A DNA stretch of 64,000 nucleotides from Bryobacterales bacterium (GTDB lineage Bacteria; Acidobacteriota; Terriglobia; Bryobacterales; UBA6623): the NCBI GenBank assembly GCA_963422375.2, contig OY729428.2:1856001-1920000 (forward strand), in the 5' to 3' direction. This document shows, in pieces, positions 9,378 through 61,224 of this stretch. The position numbers and the translations under genes were made by a program. Position 1 is the stretch's first letter; each line of letters opens with the position of its first letter. Under the pieces are notes generated by a model. That model saw only the letters and a list, made by a program, of their open reading frames with translations, ran no database searches and had not been told where the DNA came from.

Positions 9378-9767
9378 CTAAGCTACGTCTGGATCTACCC
9401 CTTGTCTTCTCTCGAAGAGATTTGAGACTGCTAGGTCCTTGCGCGGGAGAATGCGGCTAATCTTGGCCAGTCTAAATCGGTACCGTCCTATTCCAACTCC
9501 TCGAATGATCCATTCGAACCCCTGTGGCTGTATTGCAAGGATGCTTTTAGGAAGCTTTCTTCGAAAGCGAAACGAATAGACCAGATCGTCAAGGTTCTTC
9601 GGGATTTCAATTGCAAGCGATCTTGCGAAGCTAACGATTTCATTTCGATTAAATTCAAGAACTTGAGCGCTATTCACTCGATCAGATTGATGAAAAGTAT
9701 TCTGATTGAAGTGATTGAAGAAACTCGCCTCAATGATCATGGCATAACGGCTCCTAGACTTAGCCAT
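9378..9767 (-). pseudogene. Truncated putative type II restriction endonuclease (N-terminal part only)
   Basis: Low GC; overlaps the stop of the C5-MTase; PKNL(G>D)DLVYSFRFR…EWIIR…GRYRF resembles endonucleases I recall adjacent to C5-MTases; similarity ends after ~115 aa. Confidence 0.6.
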
Positions 9768-10646
9768 GGATTGACATCCTCTCTAGTCTCTCTCGTTCAA
9801 TATCGGCCTGTCTTCGTTTCCGTACGCCACTCTTGCGGTCTATCCTGCCAGAAATCGGCTGAGCCTTGAAAACTTTGGCGGCTTCAGACATAGAAAGAGA
9901 GAGCAGCTTGGCGTCACCGAGGGCCATCGTGTGTCGAGGCCGAACAGGCTGAATGTCAAGTGCTCGAGATACTTCGGTCGCGATGATGCGCCCTAGCGGT
10001 GGCGGGATTGCATTGCCGATCTGCCGAGCTCCGTGCCATTTGGTCCGACTAAATCTATACCAATCCGGGAAACCACGTAGACGTGCCATTTCTCGAACTG
10101 TTATGCACCGCGGGTAGTCATAGTGAATCGACCTTGGACTAGTAAATCCGCCTCGCCTTCGGCCCGAACCCGCTCGAATAGTGTTGGCCACTCCGTTTCG
10201 AGGAAGCTTGAAGAAACGCCTAATTGGCGCCACGGTACCCGGAATTGTCTCGGAAAATCTCTTTCGCGAGATATCTGTGTGCTCAGTTCTTGCACTTGAT
10301 GTAAGAACGGATGGAACCCATTCACGCACATATCCAAAGTGCCAAGAGTCTGAATCAATGCAACGTAATTTGGCGACGTAAGGTGATGGAGTTCCGAGGA
10401 ATTCTATGTTGACACTGTCCGAGAACGATAGATCCGAGAATTGATCGACGTCAGGAATATCTGCCAGGGCATCAGGGCCTGTTGGCTACTAGGTAGGTTA
10501 GATCCATTGTCTTTTCTACCTGAGATCCTGGTAGTATCTTCTGGATATAGCGGAAGTATTTGTCCTCATATTGCCCCAATTAGAATCAACATTTCTCGCG
10601 ACTTTGGTACACCGAACTCTCCTGAATTCAGCACTGTATATGGCTA
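9760..10646 (-). pseudogene. DNA (cytosine-5) methyltransferase pseudogene, C-terminal part
   Basis: Motif VIII-like VLNSGEFGVPKSREMLILIG, then in-frame stops/frameshift, motif IX/X RCITVREMARLRGFPDW…QIGNAIPP; low GC. Confidence 0.85.
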
Positions 10647-11694
10647 CCTGATTACCAACGAACGTCAGCCGAGGATATGGTATACTGAAGGAGGTCGGAA
10701 ATCTCTGATAGGAAAGGGGCTAGCAGCTGAAACGCAATCGCGTGCAATGCCAGAAGGGACTCAGCCCGGGCAAGTTCCTGCAGCGCTACGGCAGCGAGGG
10801 GCAATGCGAGCAGGCCGTCTTCAACGCCCGCTGGCCGGACGGCTTCCGCTGCCCGGAGTGCGGCTCCCGACGGCACTGCCGCATCCGCTCCCGCAAGCTC
10901 TGGCAGTGCCATGCCTGCCACCGCCGGACCTCCCTCGTCGCCGGCACGATCTTCGCCGCCAGCAAGCTGCCGCTGACCGTCCGGTTGCTGGCGATCCACC
11001 TGCTGACGCAGGGCCAGCACGGCGTTGCGTCGCTGGAACTGGCGCGGCAGCCGGGGGTCAGCCGGAACACGGCTTGGAAGATGAAGCACAAGCTCTTGCA
11101 AGTGATGAAGGAGCGCGACGAGCGCGTGCCGCCGGGCGGCATCGTGCAGGTGGACGATGCCTACTGGGGCGGGGAGCGGAGCGGCGGCCAGCGCGGTCGC
11201 GGCGCGGCGGGCAAGACGCCGTTCGTCGCCGCCGTGCAGGTCACCGCCGTGCAGGTCAGCGCCGCCGGCCAGCCGGCAAGGATGCGCATGAGCAGCGTGG
11301 CGGGCTTGCGCAAGAAGACGCTGGCAGCGTGGGCCGGGCGGCACTTGCAGCCCGGCACGGAGGTGCATGCCGACGGCTTGGCCTGCTTCCGGGGCGTGGC
11401 CGACGCCGGCTGCGAGCACGTGCCGACCGTCACCGGAGGCGGGCAGCGGAGCTGCGCGGATTCCCGCTTCTTCCGGGTCAACACGATGCTGGCGAACGTC
11501 AAGCAGTCCCTGGCGGGAACCTGCCATTCGTTCGACGGCAAGCACCTGCCGCGGTACCTCGCCGAGTTCCGCTACCGCTTCAACCGCCGCTACGATCCGG
11601 AGGTGCTGGTCCCCCGCCTGCTCCACGCCTCCGTGCGCACCCCGCCCATGCCTTACCGCCTCCTAACCTTGGCTGAGTCTTGTGGGTAATCAGG
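10647..11694 (+). mobile_element. IS1595-family element (CCTGATT-ended group), 1048 bp, inserted in the C5-MTase gene
   Basis: Imperfect terminal IRs CCTGATTACCAACGAACGTCAGCCGAGG / CCTGATTACCCACAAGACTCAGCCAAGG; 8-bp TSD TATGGCTA at 10639-10646 and 11695-11702. Confidence 0.95.
10727..11689 (+). pseudogene. IS1595-family transposase, degenerate copy
   Basis: Zn-ribbon CPEC…CHAC, VQVDDAYWGG, RYLAEF; relative to the copy at 59771-60718 the start ATG is CTG, there is a 15-bp duplication (AVQVT-AVQVS) and several L>P, W>R, Q>R changes. Confidence 0.85.
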
Positions 11695-12160
11695 TATGGC
11701 TAAATTATATCAAATTCTCTGGTCGAGAACTTCGCCATCATCTCTTCAAGAATCACTCGGTTCCTGCCAACTGTAAGTCCCTTTACATTCTCGAAGACAA
11801 ACGTACGGACGTCCAATTCGACGATGATCCTGACAAAGTCGTTTACCAAGAGATTCCGTGAATCTTCTAGTGTCCGTTGGCCGATTAGCGAGAATCCTTG
11901 GTACGGAGGGCCGCCGAATACACAATCTGCTGTACGGTTCCCAATTCCCGAGAGATATCTGATGATGGCGCCGGAAAGGTCTTCGACAGGTCGAGCTATC
12001 ATTGAGGTCGCGGGAAAATTGAACTTGTGGGTAGCACAGCGTACAGGGTCTACCCCGACCGCGGCGGCTATATCGAAGCCTGCCTGCTCAAACCCTAGAG
12101 CCAAGCCACCCGCACCCGCGAAGAGGTCAATGCCAAGTGGACGGACAGTGCGAACGTCTA
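11695..12160 (-). pseudogene. DNA (cytosine-5) methyltransferase pseudogene, N-terminal part
   Basis: Motif I IDLFAGAGG, motif IV GGPPYQGFS (catalytic Cys replaced by Tyr), motif VI FVFENVKG; TAG at 11700-11702; start codon not identifiable. Confidence 0.87.
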
Positions 12161-12598
12161 AATTCGCAGGATGGGGATCGATTAGGGAATTATATATCTG
12201 AGTGCCGACAACGCCATATCCGACTAGAACTGCTGTGAGCAGGGAGGTGGGTGTCGAGCTGGGGTCATGCGAGTGCGGCCGCGGGCGGGCACAGAGGGGT
12301 GGGGTGTGGGATCGTATCTGAATCGAGCCTGCCAGCGGATTGGACGAGGAAGGGACTAGAGAGGCCGCCTCGCATGCCCCGGTGGAACCCGGTTGGCGGT
12401 GGCAGGGCACGCCTTGCAAGCCGCTTGCAGGCCCTGCGAGGGCCGAAGACAGCGGATCCCCGGCGCTCGACGGCCTGCATGGACGGTCCGGACCGGACCG
12501 GGGTCGCGCCGGGGCATGCCGGATCCGGTGCGACCCTCGTACCGAGCGTGAAGCGCGCGCCCGCAGCGGGCTGCCGCGCTCGGCGCGGCGGGCGCCGC

Positions 12599-13550
12599 TC
12601 AGGCCGCGACCGCGGCCTGGCCGGTCAGCTGCCGGCAGGTCAGCGTCCGGCCGACCAAGCCCCGCGCCATGCGCCGCATCCGTTCCGCCGTGTCGCAGTC
12701 GCGGTCGTTGCGCCGTCCCGCGAACTCCGTGAGGTAGCGGCCGAGATGACGGACGCTCATCCGGTGATAGGTGCCGTACAGGCCGCGCTTGAACAGGGAC
12801 CCAAACGACTCGATGCCGTTCGTATGCGCTGCCCCGCGCACGTACTCGCCGCCGGAGTGCCTGACGGCTTCGTGCGCGAACTCCGCCATGCCGGCGCAGG
12901 CCGCCGCCTCGTCGGAGCGGAGCTGCGCCCCCGGCGCGGGCGCGCACGAAGCCCTGCAGGTCGCCCTTGGCGGTGCCCGGCAGCGGCCGCGCGGCCACTG
13001 CGTTCGTGGCGCGGTCGCGCGCCCCCGCCACGGGCGTCTTGCCGACGGGCCCGCGCCCGGCGCGGGCCTTCTTCCTCTCGTGCTGGTTGCGTTCCTTGCC
13101 GCCGACGCAGGTCTCGTCCACCTCCACCGGGCCGGCGAACAGGCCCCGATGCCGCTCCCGGCACGCGCGGATGCGGTGCGCCAGGTGCCAGGCCGACTTC
13201 CGGCTGACGCCCGGGTCGCGGTGCAGCTTCATGCTCGAGACGCCCTTGATGCCGGTGGTCAGCAGGAACAGGGCGACGGCCCGGGTGCGGTAGCCGAGCT
13301 CGGTGTCGGCCATCACGCTGCCGGTGCGCACCGAAAAGCGCTTGCCGCAGCCGCGGCAACGGTACGGCATCGAAGGGTGGGCCGCGTCGGACTGCACGCT
13401 GGAGCCGCGGCAGCGGGGGCACGCAGGACCGTCCGGCCAGCGCATGGATGCGAACCACTTTTCCGCGGATTCGTCATCGGGGAACATGGCGATCACTTCG
13501 ATCATTGTGATGCCTTTACGGAACCACTTTCCGGGACCTTGTTTCTTCAT
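12599..13550 (-). pseudogene. IS1595-family transposase, frameshifted
   Basis: CPRC…CRGC Zn ribbon, VEVDETCVGG, HTNGIESF, RYLTEF; frameshift near 12935 by comparison with the copy at 30156. Confidence 0.88.
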
Positions 13551-13573
13551 TTACGGTATCCCCTACTGGAACT

Positions 13574-13603
13574 ATTCTACCAAGAAACACCACAGAATGT
13601 CAA
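13574..13603 (-). promoter_or_regulatory. Sigma70-type promoter of the IS transposase (TTGACA-18 bp-TAGAAT)
   Basis: Consensus -35 and near-consensus TG-extended -10 just upstream of the ATG at 13550; hexamers conserved in the related copies at 30103 and 61110. Confidence 0.7.
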
Positions 13604-14080
13604 CGGAAATTCGGAAGAAATATGAAATCTTATTATGGCTTGATAATTTTGCCGACTTGATTCCCTCGGCACTCAGATATATAATTCCCATCGATTACGG
13701 GTAAGTTCTTTTCGCAGAGGGCTGCGGGTGCCTGGTCAACGGGACGGGGACCGACCACAGGCGGAGCAGATTGATTCGACAGGCCGCCCGCTCCGTGGAA
13801 TCTCTCGGTCCGTCGGGACCACTCGGAATTGCGCAGAGGGTCTGCTGACTGTGTCTCGCTTGGTCTTGCTTGCGGGGCCCTGGGCGGGTGTTCGATCTGC
13901 TCAGATTGCGAACGCATTGAGAATCTATACCACGAGCATCGCAACTGCGAGGGGCATCGGCAACCTCTTGCCCATCAGGGAGTGATGAATCAGCTGAGAG
14001 TCTTGCGGGCCGACTCTGCAATTCCAAGTGATCCTTGGTGAGTCGGACCATTCCGGTTTCAGACACTAGATATACCCCAT

Positions 14081-59765: not shown

Positions 59766-60798
59766 CCTGATTACCCACAAGACTCAGCCAAGGTTAAGAG
59801 GCGGTAAGGCATGGGCGGGGTGCGCACGGAGGCGTGGAGCAGGCGGGGGACCAGCACCTGCAGATCGTAGCGGCGGTTGAAGCGGTAGCAGAACTCGGCG
59901 AGGTACCGCGGCAGGTGCTTGCCGTGGAGCGAATGGCAGGTTCCCGCCAGGGACTGCTTGACGTTCGCCAGCATCGTGTTGACCCGGAAGAAGCGGGAAT
60001 CCCCGCAGCTCCGCTTCCCGCCTCCGGTGACGGTCGGCACGTGCTCGCAGCCGGCGTCGGCCACGCCCCGGAAGCAGGCCAAGCCGTCGGAATGCACCTC
60101 CGTGCCGGGCTGCAAGTGCCGCCCGGCCCACGCTGCCAACGTCTTCTTGCGGAAGCCCGCCACGCTGCTCAGGCGCATCCTTGCCGGCTGGCCGGCGGCG
60201 GTGACCTGCACGGCGGCCACGAACGGCGTCTTGCCCGCCGCGCCGCGCCCGCGCTTGCCGCCGGTCCGCTCCCCGCCCCAGTAGGCGTCGTCCACTTGCA
60301 CGATGCCGCCCAGCGGCACGCGCTCGTCGCGCTCCTTCATCACTTGCAAGAGCTTGTGCTTCATCTTCCAAGCCGTGTTCTGGCTCACGCCCAGCTGCCG
60401 CGCCAGTTCCAGCGAGGAAACGCCGTGCTTGCCCTGCGTCAGCAGGTGGAGCGCCAGGAACCAGACGGTCAGCGGCAGCTTGGTGGCAGCGAAGATCGTG
60501 CCGGCGACCAGGGAGGTCTGGCGGTGGCAGGCATGGCACTGCCAGAGCTTGCGGGAGCGGATGCGGCAGTGCCGCCGGGAGCCGCACTCCGGGCAGCGGA
60601 AGCCGTCCGGCCAGCGGGCCTTGAAGACGGCCTGCTCGCATGGCCCCTCGCTGCCGTAGCGCTGCAGGAACTTGCCCAGGCTGAGTCCCTTCTGGAATTG
60701 CACGCGATTGCGTTTCATCTGCTATCCCCTTTCCTGTCAGAGATTTCCGACCTCCTTCAGTATAGCATATCCTCGGCTGACGTTCGTTGGTAATCAGG
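59766..60798 (-). mobile_element. IS1595-family element (CCTGATT-ended), 1033 bp, nested in a MITE end
   Basis: Same IRs as 10647-11694; 8-bp TSD TAGGGAAT at 59758-59765 and 60799-60806. Confidence 0.95.
59771..60718 (-). CDS. IS1595-family transposase (uninterrupted ORF)
   Basis: ATG with RBS; Zn ribbon, HTH region, VDDAY, HSDG, RYLAEF. Confidence 0.9.
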   Translation of the reverse strand: MKRNRVQFQKGLSLGKFLQRYGSEGPCEQAVFKARWPDGFRCPECGSRRHCRIRSRKLWQCHACHRQTSLVAGTIFAATKLPLTVWFLALHLLTQGKHGVSSLELARQLGVSQNTAWKMKHKLLQVMKERDERVPLGGIVQVDDAYWGGERTGGKRGRGAAGKTPFVAAVQVTAAGQPARMRLSSVAGFRKKTLAAWAGRHLQPGTEVHSDGLACFRGVADAGCEHVPTVTGGGKRSCGDSRFFRVNTMLANVKQSLAGTCHSLHGKHLPRYLAEFCYRFNRRYDLQVLVPRLLHASVRTPPMPYRLLTLAESCG

Positions 60799-60800
60799 TA

Positions 60801-61224
60801 GGGAATTATATATCTGAGTGCCGACAACGCCATGTCCGACTAGAACTGCCCTGAGCGGGGAGGTCGGCGTCGAGCTCGGGTCATTCGAGTGCGGCCGCGG
60901 TGGGCACGGAAGGGTGGGCCGCGCCGGACTGCACGCTGGAGCCGCGGCAGTGGGGGCATGCCGGACCGTCGGGCCAGCGCATGGAGGCGACCACTTTTTC
61001 GCGGATTCGTCATCGCGGAACATGGCGATCACTTCAATCAGGGTGATGCCTTTACGAAACCACTTTCCGGGACTTTTCTACTTTATAGACGACCTCATAT
61101 ATTGGAACTATTCTATCAAAATACCCCACCAACTGTCAACAGATCTCCGGAAGAAATATGAAATTAATTTATGGACTGATAATTTGCAAAATTGGTTGAC
61201 TCGGCACTCAGATATATAATTCCC
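60801..61224 (-). mobile_element. Internally deleted (MITE-like) GGGAATTAT-ended IS1595 derivative, 424 bp
   Basis: 24-bp IRs; retains the promoter and the first ~60 transposase codons; TSD ATCGCATA at 59752-59759 and 61225-61232 (original left end at 59760). Confidence 0.9.

Follow-up and report, generated by a model that had tools for sequence, protein, structure and literature searches.

Directional base changes in insertion sequence copies of a Bryobacterales genome, and short-patch GC-biased conversion as their probable source

Copy A, copy B and the seven CCGG gains

The window analyzed here, the whole 64,000-nucleotide stretch of DNA, holds two copies of an IS1595-family element, which we call copy A and copy B. 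An earlier note on this DNA had remarked that CTGG or CCAG in copy B repeatedly appears as CCGG in copy A and had proposed a CCGG-tuned T:G repair or biased conversion process. The locus thus raises the question of whether these gains are derived, how far they extend beyond CCGG and beyond this pair, and what produces them. We found that the pattern is real, strong, and wider than first described.

Copy A occupies positions 10647 to 11694 on the plus strand, with the ends CCTGATTACC...GGTAATCAGG. It encodes a zinc-ribbon and DDE transposase (Pfam Zn_ribbon_IS1595, PF12760, and DDE_Tnp_IS1595, PF12762; NF033547 at 213.9 bits, cut-off 75). Its terminal inverted repeats and its 8-bp target duplication, TATGGCTA, read from the sequence at 10639 to 10646 on the left and 11695 to 11702 on the right (plus strand), likewise agree with the IS1595 family. 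The transposase frame (10727 to 11689, plus strand) has no internal stop, and its start codon has changed from ATG to CTG at 10727. Copy B lies on the minus strand at 59766 to 60798 and contains a 315-amino-acid open reading frame at 59771 to 60718; an end of an element of a second IS1595 family, F2, directly adjoins it at 60799 to 60915. The two copies differ by 42 substitutions and by a single 15-bp tandem duplication in copy A (11245 to 11259, plus strand). Over 127 conserved codons, 10 replacements fell in copy A and 2 in copy B. Because copy B carries the fewest alterations among 83 full copies in the genome, the pair exaggerates the impression that change went one way in copy A alone.

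Copy A is inserted in a single-copy C5-methyltransferase gene on the minus strand. The 5' part of this gene lies at 11703 to 12131, and the 3' part, which contains a stop and a frameshift, lies at 9760 to 10638 (ends approximate). We counted 34 changes at 237 conserved columns of the split gene; their spectrum is mixed, and the gene offers no testable CTGG site. An F2 copy follows on the minus strand (12185 to 13720, right end approximate), and the F2 consensus carries the same signature as copy A. A 616-amino-acid frame at 11700 to 13550 (minus strand) that resembles a transposase-methyltransferase fusion was rejected as such, since it is the F2 copy whose frame runs on into the methyltransferase gene. 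Copies of these elements have lost stops, and false fusions of this kind are therefore likely elsewhere in the genome.

We confirmed each of the seven CCGG gains of copy A (plus strand). Four of the five CTGG-to-CCGG changes (T>C) replace leucine by proline, at 10767 (Leu14Pro, derived in 51/99 covering copies), 11052 (Leu109Pro, 43/98), 11133 (Leu136Pro, 54/97), and 11598 (Leu286Pro, 17/100), while the fifth, at 10982, gives Trp86Arg (71/99). The two CCAG-to-CCGG changes (A>G) are Gln67Arg at 10926 (72/98) and Gln113Arg at 11064 (92/98). Polarity was taken from ten homologous elements of congeneric genomes, 67 to 75% identical, which share the residues of copy B at the seven sites (L, Q, W, L, Q or Y, L, and L); the state in copy A is therefore derived at all seven. 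It was also borne out that no CCGG became CTGG or CCAG in going from B to A. The gains first reported were thus correct, although their positions marked the first base of each new CCGG word and not the changed base. At the gain first placed at 11597, the adjacent base of copy A, G at 11600, retains the ancestral state. The remaining differences between A and B include changes of the A>C, T>G, and C>G types, which recur just as much and were absent from the earlier list. The second recurrent class, A>C, is represented by Lys97Gln at 11015 (62/99 copies), with further members at 10727, 10749, 11189, 11369, and 11444; the third, C>G, is represented by Phe189Leu at 11308 (55/98), with others at 10825, 10962, and 10987 (all plus strand).

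Direction and context of change in three repeat families

The genome comprises 6.0 Mb at 67% GC in 3 contigs. It holds 113 matches to the element of copies A and B (family F1) at ≥85% identity, 87 of them near full length, and 87 F1 variant alleles occur in at least 8 copies. Both catalytic aspartates are present in all 83 full copies. These contain 6 premature stops in total, and 38 of them are frameshifted. A full copy has a mean of 17.6 CCGG words, compared with 11 in the reconstructed ancestor. A target duplication of 8 bp with at most one mismatch is kept in 48 of the 77 complete F1 copies; its absence from the other 29 suggests crossovers between copies or adjacent insertions. Insertions of 9 to 15 bp recur in all three families described below (108 of the 213 insertions of at least 5 bases were scored as tandem duplications), and there is about one insertion per F1 copy.

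Three families were polarized against outgroups: F1; F2 (main subfamily, 72 of 150 rows kept); and F3, a 1.76-kb repeat (55 of 95 rows kept). Sites that could not be polarized were dropped (47/1033, 92/1537, and 72/1759, respectively). Over the 83 full F1 copies, CTGG or CCAG had become CCGG at 488 of 1651 site-copies, compared with 6 of 904 in reverse. The genome-wide, polarized context test put forward when the pair was first compared gave a clear answer: over the three families, T>C was recurrent at 27 of 58 CTGG sites, as against 40 of the 1178 T sites in other contexts (odds ratio 25, p 2e-21). A general AT>GC bias, which the earlier note had named as a possible refutation, falls short of these 27 recurrent CCGG gains, of which 3.1 are expected without context. 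Among the other T sites, the pooled recurrence of T>C was 13/71 for other TGG, 11/216 for other S-T-G, and 16/891 for the remainder. In paired counts, CTTG was changed at 1/15 and 4/17 sites and CTAG at 0/4, versus 12/20 and 7/13 for CTGG. A>C recurred at 30 of 323 S-A-W sites and at 9 of 913 others. By class, the pooled recurrence was 67/1236 for T>C, 39/1236 for A>C, and 36/2875 for G>C, followed by C>T (18/2875), G>T (4/2875), and A>T (0/1236).

The direction of change depended on allele frequency. F1 changes found in 1 or 2 copies comprised 102 AT>GC and 188 GC>AT, whereas those in at least 5 copies comprised 42 and 4 (p 2e-13). C>T alone made up 147 of 355 changes in 1 or 2 copies; among changes in at least 5 copies, we counted 24 T>G, 18 T>C, 15 C>G, 3 C>T, and 1 C>A. 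The F2 and F3 spectra agree with that of F1. An AT>GC share that grows with allele frequency, over rare variants that are mostly GC>AT, is the expectation under GC-biased conversion. Per site, the F1 change at CTGG reached 106 times the rate of rare C>T. At many F1 sites, the derived allele is the majority; the family consensus is therefore not the ancestor, which is a practical warning for work on such repeats.

Of the process first proposed, the biased conversion part stands: the changes are directional, occur in three families, are strongest at CTGG/CCAG, and replace conserved transposase residues. Tuning to CCGG alone does not. CCGG gains, although the strongest class, account for only 27 of the 164 recurrent changes pooled over F1 to F3 (16%), and we rejected a CCGG-only process on this ground. 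Moreover, 8 of the 20 CTGG sites in F1 are untouched, with no flanking rule seen by eye, and rare C>T was not raised at CCGG in the three families (21 per 130 sites, versus 358 per 1693). Drift toward words common in the genome was likewise rejected, as Markov models of order 2 to 8 brought no improvement over base composition.

Recurrent changes would also arise if the template switched locally, within an element, at direct repeats or imperfect hairpins, and some derived alleles do make short palindromes perfect. However, the length of the hairpin was a weak predictor of which changes are frequent (AUC 0.645), and the longest match within the element gave an AUC of 0.44 to 0.61 after GC matching, which largely refutes this account. 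It also leaves the near absence of A/T-ward changes unexplained, and we regard it as highly improbable.

Short-range linkage, and repeats compared with unique DNA

Alleles at different F1 sites are almost unlinked. Beyond 300 bp, r2 was 0.017, compared with 0.011 expected, and four gametes were present in 94 to 95% of site pairs beyond 30 bp. Descent alone therefore cannot account for the alleles that copies share. At short range, r2 dropped from 0.108 (1 to 10 bp) to 0.018 (41 to 80 bp), F2 and F3 being similar, and the decay length was about 40 to 80 bases in all three families. Copies with a rare substitution or indel in common also share adjacent alleles at less than 20 bases. We followed rare GC>AT markers in a permutation test (251 pairs, whole-element sisters dropped) and found an excess of neighbor sharing at 1 to 4, 5 to 10, 11 to 20, and 41 to 80 bp, with p-values of 0.013 to 0.033 that are modest given the several distance bins tested; there was no significant excess at 21 to 40 bp or beyond 80 bp. 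Short tracts in which linked variants hitchhike are a second expectation of GC-biased conversion, and such patterns are what very short conversion patches should leave behind. At distances below 10 bp, context dependence could account for the sharing. Three rare markers along the element are common to copy B and its sister, which also show nine scattered differences, all AT/GC pairs, near which the variable sites are unchanged. In a toy, context-free simulation, mutation was biased to C>T, tracts were 25 bp long, and the GC bias was set at 15%. It reproduced the class spectrum, including the G/C swaps; without the GC bias, it did not.

We consider short-patch, GC-biased conversion between IS copies, in which mismatches are repaired toward G:C and alleles thereby spread, to be the best explanation, with a probability of roughly 60%. 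The direction and context of the changes, the rise of their GC bias with allele frequency, their short-range linkage, and their enrichment in repeats are observed; the enzymatic steps are inferred. RecA would pair two IS copies that are 90 to 97% identical. A CTGG strand against a CCGG strand would present a T:G mismatch; its correction to C:G by a Vsr-type nick-and-fill would yield the strongest class. A:G mismatches would become C:G through MutY, yielding the A>C class, and the G/C swaps would be mostly drift with a weak lean to context. Ordinary C>T would keep arising and be overwritten, so that stops stay rare and the damage is missense. Vsr and MutY may also bias the outcome of replication errors in single-copy DNA, though to a lesser degree. 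The assignment of enzymes is less certain than conversion itself.

Single-copy DNA bears on this explanation. Sets of 925 and 847 reading frames from relatives were compared with the genome and gave 1018 loci, in which we counted CCGG-making changes wherever a locally conserved Leu has G after it or a locally conserved Trp has C before it. Such changes were found at 26 of 147 sites in 15 broken repeat loci and at 31 of 6028 sites in 902 intact unique loci; 33 broken unique loci, all undated pseudogenes, had 9 of 205. A further 68 loci (intact repeats and truncated loci) lie outside these counts. In the broken unique genes, the CCGG-making change exceeded other contexts (9/205 versus 4/344, p 0.02), and its excess over intact genes was about 3.9%, compared with 0.9% for C>T, a ratio of about 5. 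The ratio of CTGG plus CCAG to CCGG is 0.58 in the repeats of this genome, compared with 1.01 in its genes and with 2.0 and 3.6 for IS copies of relatives. Genes interrupted by an IS yielded 7 usable segments from 97 insertions, too few for the same comparison, and the closest relative, 74% identical at mutS, is too far for a three-way substitution test.

The context excess in the broken unique genes speaks for a genome-wide, context-dependent mutator. Under such a mutator, replication errors would be fixed toward C:G, for example because Vsr and MutY outrun mismatch repair or because G is misinserted in excess, and would be visible only in unselected DNA such as IS copies, each site mutating independently and repeatedly. 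Near linkage equilibrium and sister copies that differ at single sites suit it as well, as do the heavily altered low-copy elements and a GC content at fourfold sites of 88%, versus 80% in two relatives (200 kb each). Overexpression of Vsr is mutagenic in E. coli, according to an excerpt of PMC2715241. However, a mutator predicts an equal ratio of CTGG change to C>T in unique and repeated DNA, and we observed about 5 versus 106. Fourfold sites still hold T in 6% of C_GG contexts and A in 6% of CC_G contexts, and the same short contexts are either frequently changed or untouched. Private variants in repeats of 3 to 8 copies, for which polarity is noisy, are hardly raised at CTGG (15.0 versus 12.6 per 1000). 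The hitchhiking of GC>AT markers at 11 to 80 bp is left unexplained, and MutS is not unusually altered, with 5 changes at 405 conserved columns. We therefore consider a mutator acting by itself unlikely. Tilted mutation input probably contributes in addition to conversion, because the excess in these undated unique genes is significant and elements with 2 to 9 present copies carry the CCGG-making change at 23 of 111 sites. Unless such elements once had more copies, their load counts against conversion alone. A further point against short-patch conversion as the best explanation is that, of 287 segregating C/T alleles (unpolarized) in a short non-autonomous repeat and six further repeat families, only 26 lie in CYGG.

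The load of the elements with 2 to 9 copies is also what one would expect if the pairing of copies itself made new GC-ward mutations, through error-prone synthesis resolved by Vsr and MutY. F1 singletons lean the same way, T>G being commoner per site than C>A (29/329 versus 26/704), and the gene for the DinB polymerase lies 3 kb from vsr (L032 and L209, G000:C2:2575560-2578832), while a second IMS-family gene adjoins a RecA-like fragment. On the other side, biased overwriting would give the singleton skew equally well, and the low-copy private variants show little CTGG excess. Such repeat-induced mutagenesis is, in our estimate, quite improbable.

The counts from intact single-copy genes also speak against errors of base calling or assembly at methylated motifs and against assembler chimeras. 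In addition, contigs of run X1 (2015, a separate study) match the CCGG alleles at 10767 and 10926, and the directionality of the alleles is beyond what an assembler can create. Unique DNA was matched by contigs of 3 to 5 kb from runs of 2023, with no differences in X3 and X4 and at most one in X7. In favor of an artifact, contig support for the haplotypes of copies spans only part of the element, and runs X8 and X9, of which 1/100 was sampled, gave 0 reads. A base-calling artifact is unlikely, and errors of all these kinds together are scarcely credible as the source of the pattern. Runs X3, X4, and X7 yielded no usable polymorphism in unique DNA. At one locus (L330, G000:C1:1675001-1695000), three runs on three samples gave nearly identical unique DNA, and the population therefore looks close to clonal.

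Among orthologues, replacements run on balance toward GC-rich residues, for example, Lys>Arg 315 times versus 127 in reverse. An excess of Leu>Pro in 158 orthologues was discarded as a separate signal, since it came mostly from repeats.

Candidate enzymes and known systems

A search for vsr and C5-methyltransferase genes had been suggested with the original proposal. The genome contains a single intact vsr on contig 2 (a 145-amino-acid open reading frame, TIGR00632 at 154 bits) with 0 private changes at 57 conserved columns. No methyltransferase was found within 1.5 kb on either side of it; the genome has 18 methyltransferase matches elsewhere, several of them broken. In 22 congeners, vsr homologues are 58 to 83% identical, and a methyltransferase lies within 1.5 kb of vsr in 6 of 29 examined. 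One and the same methyltransferase, with identical scores, occurs at three loci of this genome (L033, L034, and L035); its neighbors at L033 are a BbrUII/HgiDII-like gene and another methyltransferase, which is frameshifted. Open frames are present for recA, mutS, mutL, a mutY-like gene, dinB, nth, alkA, two UDG, two Fpg, and a MutT-like protein, although the mutY-like and MutT-like frames score below their curated cut-offs (280 versus 286.5 and 76 versus 97.9, respectively). Loss of repair genes was rejected as the cause, since these frames are open. NucS was not found in this genome, which is 96% complete.

From our analysis, Vsr (for T:G) and MutY (for A:G) are the likely candidates for the agents. 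Excerpts of published work describe the repair of T:G to C:G by Vsr (PMC2715241) and the excision of A from G:A by MutY (PMC12606429). Against Vsr as the agent, vsr is present in 30 of 31 genomes of the genus, including three (G008, G015, and G042) whose IS copies (10, 10, and 15 examined) lack the signature. For the G>C change, we know of no repair agent. A bolder version of the conversion reading has paired repeats driven by MutY and an orphan Vsr, which would convert mismatches, perhaps newly made ones, to C:G, so that whole families ratchet into missense decay; this we hold to be doubtful. If true, it would give bacterial GC-biased conversion a named enzymatic basis.

The field has yet to settle whether GC-biased conversion operates in bacteria and which repair enzymes would carry it out, and the repeats described here would offer a rare record of biased gene conversion within one genome. 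About 100 copies of one element, together with more families, give a frequency spectrum, tract lengths, and contexts that point to Vsr and MutY. The sequences also suggest a route of transposon decay that may proceed through the spread of missense alleles and not through stops. By title and the start of abstracts, we found no prior description of motif-biased conversion among bacterial IS copies in a literature set that includes few subscription papers; Cordaux 2009 may bear on it.

GC-biased gene conversion was proposed for bacteria by Lassalle et al. 2015 (PMC4450053), who, in the excerpted text, compare recombining with non-recombining genes between strains and point to MutS/MutL. As there, a repair bias in recombination would favor G/C alleles over an AT-biased mutation input. 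The present case differs from that excerpt in that the partners would be paralogous IS copies of one genome, about 100 of which supply a frequency spectrum, and in its strong dependence on context (CTGG and S-A-W). Going by its title, Cordaux 2009 (cited in PMC12908729 and PMC3205602) concerns gene conversion among non-functional IS copies of Wolbachia and their maintenance. The two cases would share conversion among decayed IS copies within a single bacterial genome, whereas here, mosaics are left and missense alleles spread.

Repair of T:G to C:G in short patches, as an excerpt of PMC2715241 describes it for Dcm/Vsr of E. coli, resembles the step that we infer here. Closer in context is the gonococcal pair V.NgoAXIII/V.NgoAXIV, since V.NgoAXIV cuts a CTGG/CCGG heteroduplex substrate, according to the excerpted part of PMC6116569. 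Unlike the Dcm/Vsr system, the context in our genome is CTGG and not the CTWGG of Dcm, and no methyltransferase adjoins vsr. Nor is the range limited to T:G, with A>C contributing 39 and G>C 36 of the recurrent changes; a second activity or drift is therefore needed beyond Vsr.

Fungal repeat-induced point mutation introduces new C>T changes, alters repeats preferentially, and leaves transposases to decay. The preference for repeats and the decay of transposases are shared by the IS families described here. The direction is not, since the changes here run toward C/G instead of C>T, and alleles already present appear to be copied. Should the tentative drive by Vsr and MutY be true, it would form a bacterial mirror image of the fungal process, a passive mechanism against transposons.
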